Assembly (NCBI RefSeq): GCF_053078305.1
Contig: NZ_CP166879.1
Strand: one strand, 5' to 3'
DNA length: 64,000 nucleotides
Both the position numbers and the translations under genes were made by a program. Below are positions 1-9,479 of the stretch, piece by piece. Positions within the stretch are counted from its first letter, which is position 1. Every line of letters starts with the position of its first letter. The notes below the pieces were generated by a model. The model saw nothing but the letters and a program-made list of their open reading frames with translations, was not told the DNA's origin and searched no databases.

Positions 1-1
1 G

Positions 2-256
2 ACCGCATTGTTGATGGCGCTGCTGGCCATTTCATTAAGTCGGGTAAAACCGCGGCAAGGGCGATTTTCAACGTTATTGCCACTGACGTTGCTGTTTGTT
101 GCCATTTTTTATGGCGGCGACGTCTGCCGTACGCTGGTGGCTAACGGCGCGATTCCCCTCATTCCTGGTTTGTGGTTAGTGCCCGGACTCATGCTAATGG
201 GCCTGCTGATGCTGGTCGCACGCGACTTCTCTTTGCTGCAGAAATTTTCCCGATGA
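2..256 (+). CDS. LptF/LptG-family (YjgP/YjgQ) permease, C-terminal part; 5' end lies outside the window
   Basis: Open frame runs from window edge to stop at 254-256; hydrophobic C-terminus with a PRQGRF motif as recalled for LptF/LptG permeases; stop overlaps start of next permease (ATGA). Confidence 0.6.
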   Translation, partial: TALLMALLAISLSRVKPRQGRFSTLLPLTLLFVAIFYGGDVCRTLVANGAIPLIPGLWLVPGLMLMGLLMLVARDFSLLQKFSR

Positions 257-1332
257 ATGTTTTCAGTCGCTATTTAATCCGTCATCTCTTTCTCGGTTTT
301 GCCGCCGCCGCAGGGTTATTGCTGCCGCTTTTTACTACCTTCAACCTGATTAACGAACTGGATGATGTCAGCCCGGGCGGTTATCGCTGGACTCAGGCGG
401 TGCTGGTGGTGCTGATGACCTTACCGCGTACACTGGTCGAACTTTCGCCGTTTATCGCATTATTGGGAGGGATTGTTGGCCTGGGGCAGTTATCGAAAAA
501 CAGTGAGCTTACCGCCATTCGCAGCACGGGGTTTTCTATCTTCCGTATTGCACTGGTGGCGCTGGTTGCCGGGATATTGTGGACTGTTTCGTTAGGCGCG
601 ATAGATGAGTGGGTGGCGTCGCCATTGCAGCAACAGGCGCTGCAAATCAAATCGACCGCCACCGCGTTAGGGGAGGACGATGACATTACCGGCAATATGC
701 TGTGGGCCAGGCGCGGCAATGAATTTGTGACGGTGAAATCGCTGAACGAGCAGGGCCAGCCGGTGGGCGTGGAGATATTTCATTATCGCGACGATCTCTC
801 GCTCGAATCCTACATTTATGCACGCAGTGCCACCATTAAAGACGACAAAATGTGGATCCTGCATGGTGTGAATCATAAAAAATGGCTTAACGGTAAAGAA
901 ACGCTGGACACATCAGATAATCTTGCCTGGCAATCGGCCTTCACCAGTATGGATCTTGAAGAGCTATCGATGCCGGGGAATACTTTTTCTGTCCGTCAGC
1001 TTAATCATTACATCCATTATTTGCAGGAAACCGGGCAACCCAGCAGCGAATACCGCCTTGCACTGTGGGAAAAACTGGGGCAACCCATCCTGACCCTGGC
1101 GATGATTTTGCTGGCTGTGCCGTTTACCTTTAGTGCCCCGCGCTCGCCAGGGATGGGTAGCCGTCTCGCTGTAGGTGTCATCGTTGGCTTACTCACCTGG
1201 ATCAGCTATCAAATCATGGTCAATCTGGGATTGCTATTTGCGTTAAGCGCACCTGTTACCGCGCTCGGTTTACCGATAGCGTTCGTGCTGGTGGCGTTGA
1301 GCCTGGTGTATTGGTATGACAGACAACATTAA
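253..1332 (+). CDS. LptF/LptG-family (YjgP/YjgQ) permease, second of a pair
   Basis: ATG at 253 overlaps upstream stop; N-terminus MNVFSRYLIRHLF typical of this family; multiple hydrophobic segments and a large central loop; the ORF-track start at 172 is rejected as an overlapping extension. Confidence 0.7.
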   Translation: MNVFSRYLIRHLFLGFAAAAGLLLPLFTTFNLINELDDVSPGGYRWTQAVLVVLMTLPRTLVELSPFIALLGGIVGLGQLSKNSELTAIRSTGFSIFRIALVALVAGILWTVSLGAIDEWVASPLQQQALQIKSTATALGEDDDITGNMLWARRGNEFVTVKSLNEQGQPVGVEIFHYRDDLSLESYIYARSATIKDDKMWILHGVNHKKWLNGKETLDTSDNLAWQSAFTSMDLEELSMPGNTFSVRQLNHYIHYLQETGQPSSEYRLALWEKLGQPILTLAMILLAVPFTFSAPRSPGMGSRLAVGVIVGLLTWISYQIMVNLGLLFALSAPVTALGLPIAFVLVALSLVYWYDRQH

Positions 1333-1366
1333 ACCCGCCGTGGCGCAACACCACGGCGGGCTCACA

Positions 1367-2539
1367 TTACTGCTTCAGAGTAGCAAATGCCTGAATGATG
1401 GCATCGATTTGCTCACGACTGTGGGCAGCGTTTACGCTACAGCGCAGCAGCGTGATGCCTGCAGGCGCGGCAGGTGGCAGGATAAGATTCACATAAACGC
1501 CCAGCGAAATAAGCTCGCGCCAGATGCGTAAACCGTCCTCTTTCGAACCGATTATTACCGGCACTACCGGGCTAATATGTGAACTTAACTCATAACCCAG
1601 TTTTTGCAGACCGTCATACAGATGGTTGGCATTATCCATCAGCTTTTGCCGCAGCTCTGGTTGTGTGGCAATAGTTCTTAACGACGAGCGCACGGTCGCA
1701 ATGCAGGACGGAGAAGGAGAGGCGGTAAAAATATACGGGCGGCTGCCGTAGCGCAGCACTTCCATCGCTTCCGAACCGACAGCAAAACCGCCAATCGAGG
1801 CCAGACTTTTACTGAAGGTGCCAACGATAATATCCACATCATCTTCAACGCCAACGGCTTCAGCCAGTCCGCGCCCCGTTGCGCCTAACACGCCAAACGA
1901 ATGCGCTTCATCGACAATCAAATAACCACCGAGACGACGTTTGATATCAACAATTTCCGCTAACGGCGCAACGTCACCGAGCATGCTGTAGATACCCTCA
2001 ACGATGATAATCGCCTCTTTCGCCCGTTCACCGAGGCGAACCATGCGCCGTTCCAGATCTTTAGCATCGTTATGGCGGAAACGAATAATTTCCGCGCTAC
2101 CGAGAGAACAGGCGTCATAAATACTGGCGTGGCTGTCGGCATCCAGTAACACCACGGCGTTATGGTCGGCAAGTGCGCTGATGACGCCTAAATTAGCGGT
2201 ATAACCGGTTGAAAAAACGATAGCGGTAGGGCGATTGAAAAACGCGGCAATCTCTTTCTCTAACGCCAGGTGCGGCGCATAACTGCCGTTTGCCATACGA
2301 GAACCGGTGGTGCCGGTGCCTTGGGCCGCTAACGCTGCCTGACCTTCGGCGATGGCATCATGATTAAAGGTTAAACCGAGGTAATTATTGGTCCCGGCCA
2401 GAATCACTTTTTTATTGCCGATCCGGCCTTCGGTGGCGGAATACACTTCATCAATACAGGTGCCAAACGGTGTTAACCCGTTGTCACTAAATTGCAGTCG
2501 CTCGCCAGCAAGGCGCGCATATTTATCGTATAGCCCCAT
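1367..2539 (-). CDS. PLP-dependent alpha-oxoamine synthase family acyltransferase (serine palmitoyltransferase / AONS / KBL-like)
   Basis: 390 aa; GTFSKS motif containing the PLP-binding lysine; start overlaps stop of the upstream ACP gene. Confidence 0.8.
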   Translation of the reverse strand: MGLYDKYARLAGERLQFSDNGLTPFGTCIDEVYSATEGRIGNKKVILAGTNNYLGLTFNHDAIAEGQAALAAQGTGTTGSRMANGSYAPHLALEKEIAAFFNRPTAIVFSTGYTANLGVISALADHNAVVLLDADSHASIYDACSLGSAEIIRFRHNDAKDLERRMVRLGERAKEAIIIVEGIYSMLGDVAPLAEIVDIKRRLGGYLIVDEAHSFGVLGATGRGLAEAVGVEDDVDIIVGTFSKSLASIGGFAVGSEAMEVLRYGSRPYIFTASPSPSCIATVRSSLRTIATQPELRQKLMDNANHLYDGLQKLGYELSSHISPVVPVIIGSKEDGLRIWRELISLGVYVNLILPPAAPAGITLLRCSVNAAHSREQIDAIIQAFATLKQ

Positions 2540-2787
2540 TATTTATTCTCCAGCCATGGAAGTAGAGTTTCCATTAATTGCGCAGGGGTTTTGACATCCA
2601 GCAGAATATTAATAGGAATGGAAATATCGAATCTGTCTTCCAGCATCATTAAGAGATCCATCACTTTGATCGACTCCAGGCCAAGATCGTTGACGAGATC
2701 GCTGTCGGGCTTAATTTCCACACCGTTTTCGACCAAATCCTGTAAACAGGAAAGGATGTAATCCATTACTATTTCACGATTTACCAT
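2539..2787 (-). CDS. acyl carrier protein
   Basis: 82 aa, acidic, DLGLESI motif with the candidate phosphopantetheine-attachment serine; lies between reductase and oxoamine synthase. Confidence 0.7.
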   Translation of the reverse strand: MVNREIVMDYILSCLQDLVENGVEIKPDSDLVNDLGLESIKVMDLLMMLEDRFDISIPINILLDVKTPAQLMETLLPWLENK

Positions 2788-2818
2788 AGAAACGTTAACA
2801 CACCTTTAAACAAGACAA

Positions 2819-3733
2819 TCAAAATAGCCCGTTGCGTAATGCGTGTTCCAGGCTAATCCCGGGAAACCAATTAATATCTTCAGAAATACGGTTATTACTT
2901 GCCGACCAGTCGGCGTGGGTTAATTCACGAATTTTCGAGCGGGTCAGCATAGGTTCTTTACCTGCCAGGCGACTCAACGCGGTACTGATATCCGCAAGGC
3001 AGGTGAGTACCGGCAGAGGAATGCCAACCATCCGCACAGAACCACAACGGGCGTCGGCGGCAAGCTGTCGTACGCGTTGCCAGTCATAGCCGCCAGCGAC
3101 GCCATCGCATAATTCATAGGTTTGCGTCTGTACAGTTTCGGCGCTTAACCACTGACCCACTGCTTGCGCAAAATCGGTGACGTGCAGGAAAGAGAGTTGT
3201 GTATCTGGCGCACCAAGTCGTGGCAGCAGGCCGCGCAGCATCCAATCAAACAGCGGTTTTAACTCTTTATCGCCGGGACCATACACGGCTGTCGGGCGAA
3301 AAACGCCCAGCGTAATTTTGTCAGCCATTGCAGTCAGCCGTTGTTCGGCGACGTATTTGGAATTTGCGTACCAGGAGAGTTCGGGATGGCGCGCCGCCAG
3401 CGAAGAGATAAACAGAAAACGTTGGCAAAAGCCGCTCTCTTTTGCTGCTTGCATCAGGCGCAGGCTGCCGTCAACGTTACAGTGGGTAAAAATCTCTTCT
3501 TTGTGTCCGCGCACTTGCCCGGCGCAATGGACCACCGCGCTGGCTCCGGCAACCAGTTCGCTAAGCGAATGTGTATCTTCCAGCGAACCGCGCACCCAAG
3601 TAAGATTATCATTGACGTGAGCGCGGGCAGTACGCGTCAATGCGCGAACGTGAAAGCCGCGGGCGAGCAGGTTATCGATAATATATTTACCGATAAACCC
3701 GGTAGCGCCCGTCACCGCGACAGTTTGATTCAT
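2819..3733 (-). CDS. NAD(P)-dependent epimerase/dehydratase-family reductase (extended SDR)
   Basis: 304 aa; N-terminal TGATGFIG Rossmann motif and a YANSK (YxxxK) catalytic motif; 4-bp overlap with upstream ligase gene. Confidence 0.75.
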   Translation of the reverse strand: MNQTVAVTGATGFIGKYIIDNLLARGFHVRALTRTARAHVNDNLTWVRGSLEDTHSLSELVAGASAVVHCAGQVRGHKEEIFTHCNVDGSLRLMQAAKESGFCQRFLFISSLAARHPELSWYANSKYVAEQRLTAMADKITLGVFRPTAVYGPGDKELKPLFDWMLRGLLPRLGAPDTQLSFLHVTDFAQAVGQWLSAETVQTQTYELCDGVAGGYDWQRVRQLAADARCGSVRMVGIPLPVLTCLADISTALSRLAGKEPMLTRSKIRELTHADWSASNNRISEDINWFPGISLEHALRNGLF

Positions 3734-5460
3734 GCCAGGGATTCCTGCACATGAAGACTGGCAGCATAAGCCTTCTGATAACGTTTTTTCGCTTCCGCAC
3801 GGGCAGGCTTGCCGGAGGACGTTCGGGGAATACTGTGGGGCGGCAACAGATCGATAGCCGCGGTCACGCCAAATTCGCTTTGGATCCGTGCCGCCAGCGC
3901 GTGGATAAGCTGCCCGCGACGTTCTTCATCGCTGATCCGACACTGGATCTGCAAAATGATTTTTTCCTGGGCGGTAACAAAAGCAATCGCATCGCCAGAA
4001 TGAATTTCCGGTTCCTGTTCCGCTATATATTCAATATCCTGCGGCCAGATATTACGGCCACGAATAATAATCAGATCTTTAATGCGTCCGGTGACATACA
4101 GATAACCGTCCAGCAGATAACCGAGGTCGCCAGTGTCTAACCAGCCCGTCGCGGCAATCTCGTCTTGCGAAGCCTGGTCGCCAAAGTAACCGCTCATCAG
4201 ACTGGGACCGGAGATGCAAATATGGCCTACCACACGTTCCGCGACCGGCATACCTGCTTCATTGCGGATTTCAATACCATGTTCCGGCAACGCTTTGCCG
4301 CAGTTGACGAAAGTCGATACGGCGCGTGTCTCTGCACCCGGCGCGACGGCTTTACCCTGATATTCGAGGATGTCGCGATCCACTTCGTTAACCACAACCC
4401 CGGAGGCTTCATCAGAGAAGCTGACAGCCAGCGCATTTTCTGCCAGTCCGTAGCACGGCATGAAAGTTTTATTGTCAAAGTTAACCTGACGGAAACATTC
4501 AGCGAATTGATGGAGTTGTTCTGCGGAGATGGGTTCTGCACCAATACCAGCGACGCGCCAGCAGGAAAGATCCAGTTCAGCGAGATCTTTTTCATTCACG
4601 CGGCGCTGGCACAATTCATAGCCAAACGGCGGCGCAACGGAAACGGTGCCGCGATTTTTACTGATCAATTTAAGCCATTGCAGAGGACGCATGGCAAAAT
4701 CCTGAGTGCGCAAATAATCTACTGAAAGTTGCGTGGCGACCGGGGTCAGGAGAAAGCCGACCAGTCCCATATCATGGTAGAAAGGCAGCCAGGAGACGCA
4801 GCGGTCGCCAGGGCGTAATTTAATGCCGTCGTGGCTTATAGCACGTAGATTAGCCATCACTTCGCGATGGGTGATAATGACGCCACGGGGAAAACGGGTG
4901 CTGCCGGAGGTGTACTGGAGGTAGGCGATATCGTTCGGAACTGGACGCTGGAGCGCAACATCAGCTTCCGGTAATGCCTTAAACCAGGCGTGGCTTAATA
5001 CATGCAATTCGGGGTTGTTATGCGTGGCGGCATTGACCAGCGGCAACCACTCATCACCAGTGATAATGGCAGCGGGCTGGCAACTTGCCAGTAAACCCTG
5101 CAGTTTGGCGCTCCAGGAATCCCGCTGACCGACGCCCATTGGAATCGCCAACGGGACGGCGACTAAGCCGGCATACTGGCAGGAAAAAAAAGCCTCTACG
5201 AACCCGCTACTGGTTTCGGCAATCAGCGCCACGCGATCGCCTTTTTTCAGGTTCAGCGATAACAACCGCTTCGCACCAGCTTCGGCACGTGCTTTTAACG
5301 TCTGATATTCCAGTTGATCTTCAAGTTGGCAACGTCTGTCATAAAAATTCATTCCGGCGCTACTCAGAGCGGCGTAGTCCAAAGCATCAACCAGCGTTGG
5401 AAAATCGGCATAGCGCATAGGTAGGGAATGCGTAAAGATTTTATTAGACATATACACCAC
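3730..5460 (-). CDS. fatty acyl-AMP ligase / acyl-ACP synthetase (adenylate-forming enzyme)
   Basis: 576 aa; AMP-binding motif YTSGSTRFPRGV; single adenylation domain with no condensation or thiolation domain. Confidence 0.8.
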   Translation of the reverse strand: MVYMSNKIFTHSLPMRYADFPTLVDALDYAALSSAGMNFYDRRCQLEDQLEYQTLKARAEAGAKRLLSLNLKKGDRVALIAETSSGFVEAFFSCQYAGLVAVPLAIPMGVGQRDSWSAKLQGLLASCQPAAIITGDEWLPLVNAATHNNPELHVLSHAWFKALPEADVALQRPVPNDIAYLQYTSGSTRFPRGVIITHREVMANLRAISHDGIKLRPGDRCVSWLPFYHDMGLVGFLLTPVATQLSVDYLRTQDFAMRPLQWLKLISKNRGTVSVAPPFGYELCQRRVNEKDLAELDLSCWRVAGIGAEPISAEQLHQFAECFRQVNFDNKTFMPCYGLAENALAVSFSDEASGVVVNEVDRDILEYQGKAVAPGAETRAVSTFVNCGKALPEHGIEIRNEAGMPVAERVVGHICISGPSLMSGYFGDQASQDEIAATGWLDTGDLGYLLDGYLYVTGRIKDLIIIRGRNIWPQDIEYIAEQEPEIHSGDAIAFVTAQEKIILQIQCRISDEERRGQLIHALAARIQSEFGVTAAIDLLPPHSIPRTSSGKPARAEAKKRYQKAYAASLHVQESLA

Positions 5461-5814
5461 GAAAAAATTGGATATCCAAAATAAAATGACAATAATGCGG
5501 TGGATTATATAGGTATAAAAGATAAATGAGATAGTATTTTCATTGGTGTGATATTGAACATTGATTAAAATAATGCTTTAAATCTTAACTCTGTTTATTG
5601 TGAATAATATTTAATTTATGAATATATTAAGATAATGCCCTGGTGGGTCGCATTAAATCCACAATAGTCATGTTGATCGGCTAACGGTGGCGCTGGTGTA
5701 TCGTAATTATTCATAAATATTATTTTATTTTTCCTTATATTCATTGCGTGGATAGTTAAGGTACCGTCCGTTGCTGTTTATTTTCAGCATTAATTATTTG
5801 TTATCCACTAAGCT
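5461..5814. promoter_or_regulatory. AT-rich divergent intergenic region between the ligase operon and yghO (putative promoters)
   Basis: 354-bp non-coding, strongly AT-rich segment between divergently oriented genes. Confidence 0.4.
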
Positions 5815-6957
5815 ATGGAATGCGATCTGCTGATGATTCAAATTGAAAAAGTAACTAATAAAAATGACCTTAAGGCATTTATCGCTTTTCCGTCATCACT
5901 TTATCCCGACGATCCAAACTGGATACCCCCTTTATTCATTGAACGCAACGAGCATTTGTCTGTGAAAAATCCGGGGACGGACCATATCATCTGGCAGGCG
6001 TGGGTGGCAAAAATAGCCGGGCAGATAGTTGGGCGTATTACCGCGCAAATCGATACCTTACACCGCGAGCGTTACGGCGAAGATACCGGTCATTTCGGCA
6101 TGATTGACGGCATTGATGATCCGCAGGTTTTTGCCGCGTTGTTTGGCGCAGCGGAAGCGTGGTTGAAGTCACAAGGTGCAAGTAAGATCAGCGGTCCTTT
6201 CAGCCTGAATATCAATCAGGAAAGCGGATTACTGATTGAAGGTTTCGATACACCACCCTGTGCGATGATGCCACACGGCAAACCGTGGTATGCCGTGCAT
6301 ATTGAACAATTGGGTTATCACAAAGGCATTGATTTACTGGCGTGGTGGATGCAGCGAACCGATCTCACTTTCTCTCCGGCGCTAAAAAAACTGATGGATC
6401 AGGTGCGCAAAAAGGTGACCATTCGCTGCATCAATCGCCAGCGGTTTGCCGAAGAGATGCAGATCCTGCGTGAGATTTTCAACTCTGGCTGGCAGCACAA
6501 CTGGGGATTTGTGCCGTTTACCGAACATGAATTCGCGACCATGGGCGACCAACTTAAATATCTGGTGCCGGACGATATGATCTACATCGCTGAGATTGAT
6601 TCTGCACCCTGCGCGTTTATTGTCGGCTTGCCGAACATCAACGAGGCGATTGCCGATCTGAACGGATCGCTCTTTCCCTTCGGCTGGGCAAAATTGCTGT
6701 GGCGTTTGAAAGTCAGCGGTGTGCGAACTGCGCGAGTGCCGCTGATGGGCGTGCGGGACGAGTATCAGTTCAGCCGCATCGGCCCGGTGATTGCGCTGTT
6801 ATTGATTGAAGCCTTACGCGATCCGTTTGCCCGCCGGAAGATCGATGCGCTGGAGATGTCATGGATCCTCGAAACCAATACAGGCATGAATAACATGCTG
6901 GAACGCATTGGGGCGGAGCCGTACAAGCGTTACCGATTGTATGAAAAGCAGATTTAA
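5815..6957 (+). CDS. yghO: YghO-like protein, putative N-acyltransferase
   Basis: 380-aa ORF beside glcC, the position yghO occupies in E. coli; the acyltransferase fold is recalled from family annotation and is not visible as a motif. Confidence 0.6.
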   Translation: MECDLLMIQIEKVTNKNDLKAFIAFPSSLYPDDPNWIPPLFIERNEHLSVKNPGTDHIIWQAWVAKIAGQIVGRITAQIDTLHRERYGEDTGHFGMIDGIDDPQVFAALFGAAEAWLKSQGASKISGPFSLNINQESGLLIEGFDTPPCAMMPHGKPWYAVHIEQLGYHKGIDLLAWWMQRTDLTFSPALKKLMDQVRKKVTIRCINRQRFAEEMQILREIFNSGWQHNWGFVPFTEHEFATMGDQLKYLVPDDMIYIAEIDSAPCAFIVGLPNINEAIADLNGSLFPFGWAKLLWRLKVSGVRTARVPLMGVRDEYQFSRIGPVIALLLIEALRDPFARRKIDALEMSWILETNTGMNNMLERIGAEPYKRYRLYEKQI

Positions 6958-6963
6958 TACCAG

Positions 6964-7728
6964 CTAACTCAGGTTCATCTCCAGCGGCACCGCCGAGCGA
7001 ATCAAATGGTGGCCTTCCAGCTCGATATCGTGGAGATTCTTTTTCACGGTCCGCACATGATCGCGTGCTGCGCGCTGGGCGACGTGCGGCAGCCGCTGCA
7101 ACACCGCGTTGTAGATCCGCGCATGCTGGCGATCGATCTGCTTTTTTTGCTGTGGTCGATGGTAGAGATTATTTACGCTGGCAAACACTGAATTAAACAT
7201 CAGGTCAGTCAATGATTGCAGCGTAAACACCAGCACCTGATTGTGAGAAGCCTGACAAATGGCGAGATGGAAAGCGTGATCCAACTGCGCATGTTCGATC
7301 AGCGAAATCTCTTTGTTGTTCTCACTGGCGGCGAGCATTTTTTCATAACAGCGGGTTATCACAACAAAATCAGCCTGCGTTCCCAGCGTTGCCGCCAGCC
7401 TTGCCGATTCGCCCTCCAGCAATGCGCGAACGTCGAGCAGATCGTACAGCGTTCGCGGCTGCGTACTGAACAGATGGATCAGCGGGCTGGTGTCCTGCAC
7501 CCGATTAAGCCGTGCGACACGAGAATCGCGACCCTGCGCCGTTTCAATAATCCCGCGCCCGCGCAGCACGGTCAGCCCTTCACGCAGTGCGGAGCGTGAG
7601 AACCCGAGCTTTTCACACAGTCGACGTTCCGAGGGAAGCGGCTGACCGACCTTCAGTACGCCGTCGATAATTAACCGTTCGATACTCTCTGCAACCACTT
7701 CGCAAATAGGGCGACGTTCATCTTTCAT
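6964..7728 (-). CDS. glcC: GlcC, GntR/FadR-family regulator of the glycolate operon
   Basis: Protein from MKDERRPICEVVAESIERL matches GlcC as recalled; start set at the internal Met rather than the ORF-track start at 7788. Confidence 0.9.
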   Translation of the reverse strand: MKDERRPICEVVAESIERLIIDGVLKVGQPLPSERRLCEKLGFSRSALREGLTVLRGRGIIETAQGRDSRVARLNRVQDTSPLIHLFSTQPRTLYDLLDVRALLEGESARLAATLGTQADFVVITRCYEKMLAASENNKEISLIEHAQLDHAFHLAICQASHNQVLVFTLQSLTDLMFNSVFASVNNLYHRPQQKKQIDRQHARIYNAVLQRLPHVAQRAARDHVRTVKKNLHDIELEGHHLIRSAVPLEMNLS

Positions 7729-7979
7729 TCCCGGACCTCGTGCACAGGTAGGACCAATTTTTCTGTTCTTAACTCGCAAAACACGCACATCACGTAAGTG
7801 ATTATGTTACATCAATTTAACATTGAGTTAACCAAGACAAGGTCACAGAGCTGGAAAAAAAAATGGTCTGACCGGTAGCTAAAGAGATAGACGAAAACGA
7901 AAAGCCCGCTTAATAACTGTTCACAGAAGCAGCGCGCAAAAATCAGCTGCCACACAACATAACAAAGCGAAGCCTACTC
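7729..7979. promoter_or_regulatory. glcC / glcD divergent promoter region
   Basis: Intergenic region between divergent glcC and glcDEFGB. Confidence 0.5.
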
Positions 7980-9479
7980 ATGAGCATCTTGTACGAAGAG
8001 CGTCTTGATGGCGCTTTACCCGATGTCGACCGCACATCGGTACTGATGGCACTGCGTGAGCATGTCCCTGGACTTGAGATCCTGCATACCGATGAGGAGA
8101 TCATTCCTTACGAGTGTGACGGGTTGAGCGCGTATCGCACGCGTCCATTACTGGTTGTTCTGCCTAAGCAGATGGAACAGGTGACATCGATTCTGGCTGT
8201 CTGCCACCGCCTGCGTGTACCGGTGGTGACCCGTGGTGCAGGCACCGGGCTTTCTGGTGGCGCGCTGCCGCTGGAAAAAGGTGTGTTGTTGGTGATGGCG
8301 CGCTTTAAAGAGATCCTCGACATTAACCCCGTTGGTCGCCGCGCGCGCGTGCAGCCAGGCGTGCGTAACCTGGCGATCTCCCAGGCCGTTGCACCGCATA
8401 ATCTCTACTACGCACCGGACCCTTCCTCACAAATCGCCTGTTCCATTGGCGGCAACGTGGCAGAAAATGCCGGCGGCGTCCACTGCCTGAAATATGGTCT
8501 GACCGTACATAACCTGCTGAAAATTGAAGTGCAAACGCTGGATGGCGAGGCACTGACGCTGGGATCGGATGCGCTGGATTCGCCTGGTTTTGACCTGCTG
8601 GCGCTGTTCACCGGATCGGAAGGTATGCTCGGCGTGACCACCGAAGTAACGGTGAAGCTGTTGCCGAAGCCGCCCGTGGCGCGGGTTCTGTTAGCCAGCT
8701 TTGACTCGGTAGAAAAAGCCGGACTTGCAGTTGGTGACATCATCGCCAATGGCATTATCCCCGGCGGGCTGGAGATGATGGATAACCTGTCGATCCGCGC
8801 GGCGGAAGATTTTATTCATGCCGGTTATCCCGTCGACGCCGAAGCGATTTTGTTATGCGAGCTGGACGGCGTGGAGTCTGACGTACAGGAAGACTGCGAG
8901 CGGGTCAACGACATCTTGTTGAAAGCGGGCGCGACTGACGTCCGTCTGGCACAGGACGAAGCAGAGCGCGTACGTTTCTGGGCCGGTCGCAAAAATGCGT
9001 TCCCGGCGGTAGGACGTATCTCCCCGGATTACTACTGCATGGATGGCACCATCCCGCGTCGCGCCCTGCCTGGCGTACTGGAAGGCATTGCCCGTTTATC
9101 GCAGCAATATGATTTACGTGTTGCCAACGTCTTTCATGCCGGAGATGGCAACATGCACCCGTTAATCCTTTTCGATGCCAACGAACCCGGTGAATTTGCC
9201 CGCGCGGAAGAGCTGGGCGGGAAGATCCTCGAACTCTGCGTTGAAGTTGGCGGCAGCATCAGTGGGGAACATGGCATCGGGCGAGAAAAAATCAATCAAA
9301 TGTGCGCCCAGTTCAACAGCGATGAAATCACGACCTTCCATGCGGTCAAGGCGGCGTTTGACCCCGATGGTTTGCTGAACCCTGGGAAAAACATTCCCAC
9401 GCTACACCGCTGTGCTGAATTTGGTGCCATGCATGTGCATCACGGTCATTTACCTTTCCCTGAACTGGAGCGTTTCTGA
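7980..9479 (+). CDS. glcD: glycolate oxidase subunit GlcD (FAD-binding)
   Basis: 499 aa beginning MSILYEERLDG; conserved operon order. Confidence 0.95.
   Translation: MSILYEERLDGALPDVDRTSVLMALREHVPGLEILHTDEEIIPYECDGLSAYRTRPLLVVLPKQMEQVTSILAVCHRLRVPVVTRGAGTGLSGGALPLEKGVLLVMARFKEILDINPVGRRARVQPGVRNLAISQAVAPHNLYYAPDPSSQIACSIGGNVAENAGGVHCLKYGLTVHNLLKIEVQTLDGEALTLGSDALDSPGFDLLALFTGSEGMLGVTTEVTVKLLPKPPVARVLLASFDSVEKAGLAVGDIIANGIIPGGLEMMDNLSIRAAEDFIHAGYPVDAEAILLCELDGVESDVQEDCERVNDILLKAGATDVRLAQDEAERVRFWAGRKNAFPAVGRISPDYYCMDGTIPRRALPGVLEGIARLSQQYDLRVANVFHAGDGNMHPLILFDANEPGEFARAEELGGKILELCVEVGGSISGEHGIGREKINQMCAQFNSDEITTFHAVKAAFDPDGLLNPGKNIPTLHRCAEFGAMHVHHGHLPFPELERF

Follow-up and report, generated by a model that had tools for sequence, protein, structure and literature searches.

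The closest described system is the ECD_02850-ECD_02854 locus of Escherichia coli BL21(DE3). Padilla-Gómez et al. 2022 named all five of its genes, yghO included, and showed formation of 3-oxo-sphinganine (PMC9386255). In that study, AcpR (ECD_02853) was found to bear 4'-phosphopantetheine, AasREc transferred the acyl group to AcpREc, and 3-oxo-sphinganine was formed by the serine palmitoyltransferase (SPT; ECD_02854). AasR, AcpR, and SPT together yielded this product, with SPT favouring acyl-AcpR, while yghO was named aca as a homologue of CC_1154 and N-acylation of the sphingoid base by YghO was suggested (PMC9386255). A fatty acyl-AMP ligase (FAAL) from E. coli, EcFAAL, has been crystallised (PDB 3PBK); it loads holo-EcACP and rejects CoA (PMC8460268).

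In Caulobacter crescentus, the pathway genes are spt (CC_1162), acp (CC_1163), cerR (CC_1164), the acyl-ACP synthetase gene (CC_1165), and bcerS (CC_1154), and lptF2/lptG2 are CC_1156/CC_1155 (PMC11324152; bioRxiv 10.64898/2026.04.12.717747). A 2026 preprint, which also depicts the locus of E. coli UTI89, demonstrates a role for LptF2/LptG2 in moving sphingolipid in Caulobacter: the two proteins form a complex, bind LptB, and are needed when sphingolipid is made (bioRxiv 10.64898/2026.04.12.717747).

Here, we analysed a stretch of 64,000 nucleotides from contig NZ_CP166879.1 (assembly GCF_053078305.1), hereafter the window. We conclude that its first genes are very probably the central part of the locus by which Escherichia would synthesise and export sphingolipid (ceramide). 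This is a rediscovery and nothing new, as publications already cover the identities of the genes, the initial biochemical steps, and the idea of export by the permeases; for BL21(DE3), the same interpretation, with yghO as the N-acyltransferase, has already been published (PMC9386255). Further interest attaches to native expression, to the structure of the end product, and to accessory genes lying beyond the window.

Results

Gene layout

The open reading frames listed in a preliminary description of this DNA (spt and the genes for the acyl carrier protein (ACP), the short-chain dehydrogenase/reductase (SDR), the ligase, and YghO) were all present at the coordinates it gave. Its neighbour glcC was likewise found after yghO (6964-7728, minus strand), as annotated in E. 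coli genomes. That description had all four minus-strand genes overlapping at their stop and start codons, which holds for two of the three junctions. A single base, 2539, belongs both to the stop of acp and to the start of spt, and the SDR and ligase genes overlap by 4 nt (3730-3733), but acp and the SDR gene are 31 nt apart (2788-2818).

Acyl activation and condensation

The spt gene (1367-2539, minus strand) encodes a 390-aa serine palmitoyltransferase, with the dedicated acp gene directly upstream in the same operon. The GTFSKS motif previously picked out for its PLP lysine is present at residues 240-245, the lysine being K244. On the NCBIfam SPT equivalog NF047599 the protein scored 599.5 bits (cut-off 500), whereas it stayed below the cut-offs of the BioF (332 bits; cut-off 426), Kbl (297; 460), and ALAS (217; 339) models. 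The best matches in the PDB were the Sphingomonas SPTs 2jg2 and 2x8u (371-375 bits), compared with 205 bits for cysteate acyltransferase, about 200 for Kbl, about 175 for BioF, and 124 for CqsA. The enzyme, which had been described only as an oxoamine synthase, groups with the serine palmitoyltransferases, and a BioF or Kbl identity was ruled out by the curated cut-offs. It was 99.2% identical to BL21 ECD_02854 and would, as shown for that enzyme, convert serine and an acyl-thioester to 3-oxo-sphinganine.

The dedicated carrier protein is encoded by acpR (2539-2787, minus strand; 82 aa). Profile searches returned ACP family matches, all of them weak. The phosphopantetheine serine lies within the motif GLESI, and the protein was 100% identical to BL21 ECD_02853.

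The ligase gene, aasR/EcFAAL (3730-5460, minus strand), encodes a fatty acyl-AMP ligase for loading of the dedicated ACP. Its start is ambiguous by 14 codons, GTG 5460 in the mechanical reading frame and ATG 5418 in PGAP, giving a product of 562-576 aa; the PDB 3PBK construct is the long form. The protein scored 874.8 bits on the NCBIfam FAAL model NF006624 (cut-off 600), matched 3pbk with 1297.7 bits across residues 4-576, and was 98.6% identical to BL21 ECD_02851. As reported for EcFAAL/AasREc (PMC8460268, PMC9386255), it probably transfers acyl-AMP to holo-ACP and not to CoA.

The SDR

The gene between acpR and aasR (2819-3733, minus strand), cerR-like and named epi in BL21, encodes an extended SDR of 304 aa. 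Searches with it returned generic epimerase/SDR families only, and it reached no curated family. The nucleotide-binding Rossmann motif TGATGFIG (residues 8-15) and the catalytic YANSK (Y121 and K125) both align with an SDR of a Caulobacter sp. metagenome-assembled genome, the comparison genome used throughout in place of C. crescentus. This SDR occupies the same operon position, upstream of acp-spt, and the two proteins were 35% identical over 289 aa (E = 3e-42). The window protein, 97.4% identical to BL21 ECD_02852, is a candidate for reduction of the 3-keto group of the sphingoid intermediate.

A separate observation concerns its location. Caulobacter CerR has been reported as periplasmic (PMC11087976), whereas the window SDR begins directly with the Rossmann motif and shows no N-terminal signal peptide that is obvious by eye, which is a point against the pathway reading.

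YghO

On the opposite strand lies yghO (5815-6957, plus strand), which encodes a tandem-GNAT protein homologous to the bacterial ceramide synthase. Since the orthologues are 374 aa long, translation probably begins at ATG 5833 instead of 5815. Sequence searches of Pfam, NCBIfam, and PDB sequences with YghO gave no match, and its GNAT fold became visible only through structure prediction and fold comparison. The AF2 model (pLDDT 97.1, pTM 0.93) had tandem GNAT proteins as its top PDB fold matches (2wpw, 5kf1, 7q3a, and MshD; E 5e-16 to 1e-11), and the acyltransferase assignment in the preliminary description is thus borne out by the predicted fold. That description had named a BioF or Kbl grouping of the oxoamine synthase, or a YghO lacking an acyltransferase fold, as observations that would speak against it; we found neither.

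Along its whole length (374 aa; E = 3e-108), YghO shared 45% identity with the protein encoded after lptG2 in the Caulobacter sp. genome, the position of the ceramide synthase; for its equivalence to CC_1154 itself, we rely on PMC9386255. We also surveyed its genomic neighbourhood. The genome scan was seeded with a 19-sequence subset, as the 84-sequence alignment was too diverse for seeding, and the sample comprised 56 genomes in which a YghO relative had complete flanks of 10 kb. In 53 of these, one or more of spt, acp, SDR, FAAL, and LptF2/G2 lay beside the YghO relative. All four other biosynthetic genes were nearby in 30, and LptF2/G2 was within 10 kb in 38. Fold and homology together suggest that YghO may be the N-acyltransferase for 3-oxo-sphinganine or sphinganine.

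Candidate transport genes

Two permease genes converge on the operon. The LptG-family gene, lptG2 (253-1332, plus strand; 359 aa), is whole, but the LptF-family gene, lptF2 (1-256, plus strand), begins left of the window, which holds only its 3' end (last 84 codons). The translation of this fragment matches the C-terminus of a 356-aa protein annotated as LptF in a matching locus, and the end of lptF2 and the start of lptG2 have 4 nt in common. Full-length LptF2 scored 319 bits on TIGR04407 and LptG2 305.6 bits on TIGR04408, both above the LptF/LptG equivalog cut-offs. LptG2, 98.6% identical to the BL21 copy, matched the canonical E. coli LptG (6mhu_G) with only 146 bits and is therefore a diverged paralogue. 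The lipid export proposed for these permeases agrees with the later results on the Caulobacter paralogues (bioRxiv 10.64898/2026.04.12.717747), by analogy with which they presumably carry sphingolipid instead of lipopolysaccharide.

Intergenic elements

A 16-bp GC-rich hairpin lies between the convergent stop codons of lptG2 and spt (1330-1364). Its RNA fold had an energy of -33.3 kcal/mol (z = -6.5 against shuffles), and it may act as a bidirectional terminator. With the exception of this strong hairpin, counts of promoter-like and terminator-like elements were not above those in shuffled sequences, and an Rfam search of positions 1-8000 gave no RNA family match. The divergent region between aasR and yghO (5461-5814) is AT-rich, with a GC content of 34% in positions 5501-6000 against about 52% in the flanks, and presumably serves as the control region for both transcription units.

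Distribution and conservation

Of 5426 complete E. coli genomes, 4055 (~75%) carried the 8-kb region at 95-99% identity and a coverage of 80% or more, the best identity of the window to any complete genome being 98.9%. All six genes were under purifying selection, with dN/dS of 0.03-0.13 when compared with a divergent Escherichia genome. Together, this frequency and these ratios argue against a fortuitous series of open reading frames. The same module occurs in Serratia and Pluralibacter at different chromosomal settings, and it is kept across Enterobacterales and Pseudomonas. K-12 lacks the cluster through an IS5-associated deletion, and it is because this reference strain lost the locus that E. 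coli is usually described as sphingolipid-free.

Just left of the window lie Enterobacterales-specific genes. One of them encodes a 274-aa helical protein without a Pfam match. Its fold matches to CHAD domains were weak and non-significant (E 0.17-0.46), and we make no claim about its function.

Discussion

Proposed pathway

In the pathway that we propose, AasR/EcFAAL would adenylate a C12-C16 fatty acid and pass it to the dedicated carrier AcpR and not to CoA. The serine palmitoyltransferase would then join acyl-AcpR and L-serine with release of CO2, giving 3-oxo-sphinganine. Experiments on proteins with 98.6-100% identity to those of the window have demonstrated these two steps, ligase loading and condensation. 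Homology, fold, and synteny with Caulobacter suggest the following two: YghO, as a cytoplasmic tandem-GNAT enzyme, would put a second acyl chain on the amine, and the SDR would reduce the 3-keto group, before or after acylation, to give dihydroceramide. The order of reduction and N-acylation is disputed in the literature (PMC11087976 vs PMC9386255). Finally, as suggested by the Caulobacter paralogues, the convergent LptF2/LptG2, probably with the housekeeping ATPase LptB, would draw the lipid out of the inner membrane and pass it on towards the outer one. The sphingolipid reading is upheld. The product is a genuine sphingoid base derived from serine, and the evidence allows a more exact term than the 'ceramide-like aminolipid' of the preliminary description.

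Alternative interpretations

The condensing enzyme might instead take an amino acid other than serine, or make another N-acyl amino-alcohol of the capnine or autoinducer type, so that the product would be an aminolipid and not a sphingolipid. Cysteate acyltransferase and the CAI-1 synthase do belong to the alpha-oxoamine synthases and were both among the PDB matches, and relaxed substrate specificity of SPT has been discussed (PMC9386255). [quoted passage not shown] We consider a non-serine product very improbable. Even less credible is that YghO is a DNA-binding regulator, or an unrelated neighbouring acetyltransferase, with N-acylation taking place elsewhere or not at all. The MG1655 annotation of YghO as a 'putative DNA-binding transcriptional regulator', the naming of several AFDB relatives as 'DNA-binding protein', and the missing Pfam or NCBIfam match would all fit a regulator. 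Against this, the confidently predicted structure is a tandem GNAT whose fold matches include no DNA-binding domain, the protein shares 45% full-length identity with the one at the Caulobacter ceramide-synthase position, and genes of sphingolipid synthesis or transport lie beside 53 of the 56 relatives. A role as DNA-binding regulator was rejected on this combination of fold and synteny.

A different question is whether the cluster is used at all, or is an evolutionary leftover that is intact in sequence, is not naturally expressed, and makes no sphingolipid. Low-GC sequence is often silenced in enterobacteria, and the 34% GC of the divergent control region may be linked to such silencing. The IS5-associated deletion removed the genes from K-12, and no native E. 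coli sphingolipid has been reported in the searchable literature. Furthermore, BL21 carrying empty vectors formed no 3-oxo-sphinganine despite its chromosomal locus (PMC9386255), suggesting that the cluster may be silent in laboratory culture. However, every gene has a dN/dS of 0.03-0.13, the reading frames are all full length, about three quarters of complete E. coli genomes carry the cluster, and the module is retained across Enterobacterales and Pseudomonas. Conservation to this degree requires selection for function somewhere, and we regard a leftover as unlikely.

A functional sphingolipid locus, the reading that we prefer, allows a further and more tentative proposal. Most natural E. coli might make a surface-displayed complex sphingolipid under non-laboratory conditions, its head group being built or handled through the Enterobacterales-specific genes left of the window. 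Candidates would be the MOP-type flippase YghQ, the P-loop kinase-like YghR/S/T, the 274-aa helical protein (with its weak CHAD-like fold), and a YtfJ-family periplasmic protein. If so, E. coli would possess a class of lipid not previously recorded in its lipidome, and the block of 'ygh' genes, left functionless by the loss of half of the locus in K-12, would be explained. Were it produced during infection or in the gut, the lipid could alter the properties of the outer membrane, tolerance to polymyxin or detergents, and recognition by the host. Sphingolipids have such effects in Caulobacter and Bacteroides.

Comparison with known systems

The BL21(DE3) locus (yghO/aca, aasR, epi, acpR, and spt) is the same locus in the same gene order, with glcC on one side and lptG/lptF on the other, as in the window. 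The proteins were 97.4-100% identical, with allelic differences only; the window represents another E. coli lineage. EcFAAL is essentially the same protein as the window ligase. In the structural papers it serves as a model FAAL and its pathway goes unnamed; the word 'sphingolipid' was absent from both FAAL papers in a text search. The canonical LptB2FG lipopolysaccharide extractor shares permease family and overall length with LptF2/G2, whereas the window pair is diverged and is encoded in a sphingolipid locus without its own lptB.

Compared with Caulobacter, the E. coli locus lacks the cpgABC head-group genes and lptC2, and has instead yghQ, yghR/S/T, and the genes for the 274-aa and YtfJ-family proteins. 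The placement of genes also differs: in Caulobacter, bcerS is directly 3' of lptG2, whereas the E. coli locus has yghO and the ligase gene diverging from each other and lptF2/G2 converging on spt. Identities between the two loci are only 24-52%; the Caulobacter sp. locus, with the same SDR-acp-spt and lptG2-yghO order, gave 52% for SPT, 40% for ACP, 35% for SDR, and 45% for YghO. The parallel drawn earlier with the five-gene Caulobacter pathway reflects real homology and conserved gene order. All seven protein families of the C. crescentus pathway are common to both loci, the operon order ligase-SDR-acp-spt is the same, and both carry LptF2/G2 paralogues inside the locus.

Organization of the cluster

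The cluster beside glcC had been read, in a preliminary description, as a candidate for synthesis and export of a sphingolipid- or ceramide-like aminolipid. Our analysis confirmed the observation and supports the interpretation. All the listed open reading frames were found in place: spt, encoding an oxoamine synthase (1367-2539), the small carrier protein gene acp (2539-2787), an SDR gene (2819-3733), and an adenylating ligase gene (3730-5460), all on the minus strand, and yghO (5815-6957) on the plus strand, with glcC (6964-7728, minus strand) immediately past it. The minus-strand genes had been said to overlap at their stop and start codons, which holds at two junctions (1 nt and 4 nt) but not between acp and the SDR gene, which lie 31 nt apart. 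Both LptF/LptG-like permease genes are present, but only the LptG-like gene (253-1332) is complete in the window. It follows the LptF-like gene, which is cut by the window's left edge, leaving its last 84 codons (ending at 256).

The ligase start has a 14-codon ambiguity, and yghO probably starts at 5833 rather than 5815, as its orthologues are 374 aa long. A very stable hairpin at 1330-1364 (-33.3 kcal/mol, z = -6.5) separates the convergent stop codons of the lptG-like gene and spt. The divergent ligase-yghO gap (5461-5814, 354 bp) has a GC content of 34% vs ~52% in its flanks. In Serratia and Pluralibacter, the corresponding gaps measure 700-800 bp.

Identity of the biosynthetic proteins

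The oxoamine synthase contains the GTFSKS motif with K244 and scored 599.5 bits against the NCBI curated SPT equivalog model (cut-off 500). Its nearest solved structures are Sphingomonas SPTs (~375 bits), followed by Kbl (~200) and BioF (~175). Since the SPT equivalog cut-off was passed and those of BioF and Kbl were missed, its placement among the acyl-amino-acid condensing enzymes, and not with BioF/KBL, was borne out. Scores against BioF, Kbl, ALAS, and CqsA were far under the respective cut-offs, and a BioF or Kbl identity was rejected.

The ligase passed the FAAL subfamily model, in agreement with its description as a fatty acyl-AMP ligase. Its match to the crystallized E. coli FAAL (PDB 3PBK) covers residues 4-576 with a score of 1297.7 bits; by sequence, it is essentially the same protein. 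EcFAAL loads its ACP and rejects CoA (PMC8460268), and its structure has been solved with bound lauroyl- and myristoyl-AMP (PMC11837247). The carrier protein gave only weak matches to ACP families but is 100% identical to its BL21 counterpart, which bears phosphopantetheine (PMC9386255).

The SDR matched generic extended-SDR families only. It carries both the TGxxGxxG and YxxxK motifs and shares 35% identity with the SDR at the equal operon position in a Caulobacter genome. No signal peptide was evident in the window SDR, whose Rossmann motif lies right at the N-terminus (residues 8-15). Its Caulobacter homologue CerR, by contrast, has been reported as periplasmic.

YghO had no sequence matches in Pfam, NCBIfam, or PDB sequences. 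An AlphaFold model (pLDDT 97.1), built from 84 aligned sequences taken from a family with over 6000 representative proteins, had tandem GNAT acyltransferases as its best PDB neighbors. The predicted tandem GNAT fold supports the proposed acyltransferase role, against which a YghO devoid of such a fold would have counted. Some longer family representatives, P0121 (784 aa), P0131 (630 aa), and P0190 (940 aa), contain either two YghO-like stretches or an additional domain of 250-560 residues. Such fusion partners might hint at family substrates.

Permeases and export

The locus permeases (window 1-1332; 5186-7332 in L001, an E. coli locus that includes the genes left of the window) exceed the NCBI LptF/LptG equivalog cut-offs, and are therefore annotated as LPS exporters. 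These automatic names are likely misleading. Both permeases are diverged paralogues, the window LptG2 scoring 146 bits against canonical LptG. LptC2/F2/G2 and a flippase have been put forward as sphingolipid transporters (PMC11324152). Caulobacter LptF2/G2 form a complex, bind LptB, and are needed when sphingolipid is made, according to a 2026 preprint in which the UTI89 locus of E. coli is drawn as well (10.64898/2026.04.12.717747). By analogy with Caulobacter, LptF2/G2 would export the sphingolipid together with the housekeeping LptB.

Conservation of the gene neighborhood

YghO relatives were scanned in one genome per species, giving 80 loci whose flanks were searched with the window proteins, and co-localization was counted over the 56 of them whose 10-kb flanks were complete. 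Near YghO relatives, spt and acp each occurred in 36/56 loci, the SDR gene in 37, the ligase gene in 33, and LptF2/LptG2 in 38. The four biosynthetic genes occurred together in 30/56, and just 3/56 had none of these genes, permeases included. The module is also present in Serratia and Pluralibacter, in differing chromosomal settings. In Nitrosomonas, Nitrosospira, and Nitrosovibrio, lptF2-lptG2 lie ~2 kb downstream of the yghO homologue (loci L019, L021-L024, L029, L032, L035, L037, L038, L042, and L063), and no spt was found within 10 kb of that homologue in these ammonia-oxidizing betaproteobacteria. The acyltransferase is therefore tied more tightly to the transporter than to spt.

Distribution in E. 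coli and loss from K-12

The first 8 kb of the window is 95-99% identical to E. coli chromosomes, and at least 80% of it is covered in 4055 of 5426 complete genomes. The NCBI pipeline labels the E. coli products as serine palmitoyltransferase, acyl carrier protein, NAD-dependent epimerase/dehydratase, fatty acyl-AMP ligase, YghO, LptF, and LptG. The K-12 label for YghO, "putative DNA-binding transcriptional regulator", conflicts with its tandem GNAT fold. Against one divergent Escherichia genome, dN/dS was 0.03-0.13 for all six genes, which indicates that they are kept by selection. Across these genes, L006 (titled E. coli SCPM-O-B-8794) differs from the window by a synonymous divergence of 0.13-0.50; because this is high within one species, the record may come from a cryptic lineage of Escherichia.

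K-12 MG1655 has the order glcC-yghO-IS5-truncated yghQ-yghR-yghS-yghT (L087 11044-14409) and lacks the entire ligase-SDR-acp-spt-lptG2-lptF2-ytfJ-like-274-aa block. In this reference strain, an IS5-associated deletion has thus taken out the ligase gene through the 5' part of yghQ.

Accessory genes and native expression

Left of the window, L001 1-5155 contains yghT, yghS, and yghR (P-loop, thymidylate-kinase-like), yghQ (MOP-type flippase), an orphan-family 274-aa ORF (3759-4583; 343 proteins found), and a YtfJ-family ORF (4595-5155). It is chiefly in Enterobacterales that these accessory genes accompany the sphingolipid module, and YghR/S-like proteins also adjoin it in one Pseudomonas and one betaproteobacterial genome. 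The 274-aa protein was modelled as a confident helical bundle (pLDDT 91.8), with only weak fold matches to CHAD polyphosphate-binding domains (E 0.17-0.46).

The literature searched contained no description of a sphingolipid made natively by E. coli, and 3-oxo-sphinganine was not detectable in BL21 with empty vectors (PMC9386255). The latter result, together with the AT-rich presumed control region at 5461-5814, suggests that transcriptional silencing keeps the locus unexpressed in ordinary culture. Wild E. coli may nevertheless make a native, surface-exposed complex sphingolipid, with the accessory genes taking part, although we consider this less likely than not.

Comparison with known pathways

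Identity between the window proteins and their BL21(DE3) counterparts is 97.4-100%; in that strain, Padilla-Gómez et al. (2022) named ECD_02851 aasR, ECD_02852 epi, ECD_02853 acpR, ECD_02854 spt, and yghO/ECD_02850 aca (PMC9386255). In that study, E. coli AasR, AcpR, and SPT together gave a compound migrating as 3-oxo-sphinganine, and SPT preferred acyl-AcpR over acyl-CoA (PMC9386255). The first two steps, in which a fatty acid is activated on a dedicated ACP and then condensed with serine, are demonstrated. For the remaining steps, homology, fold, and synteny suggest that YghO would N-acylate and the SDR would perform the ketoreduction. Which of the two comes first is disputed: reduction precedes acylation in one group's proposal (PMC9386255), and in another's a periplasmic CerR reduces after cytoplasmic acylation (PMC11087976).

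The system is already known, and every element of the initial interpretation is in print; nothing in it is new, because the papers on the BL21 genes, the ligase, and export cover it. Padilla-Gómez et al. (2022) noted that clustering of all five genes is confined to C. crescentus and E. coli BL21 (PMC9386255). In the Caulobacter sp. genome compared here, the order is SDR-acp-spt and then, at a distance, lptF2-lptG2-yghO, and the YghO counterpart shares 45% identity along its whole length. This arrangement agrees with the published C. crescentus locus.
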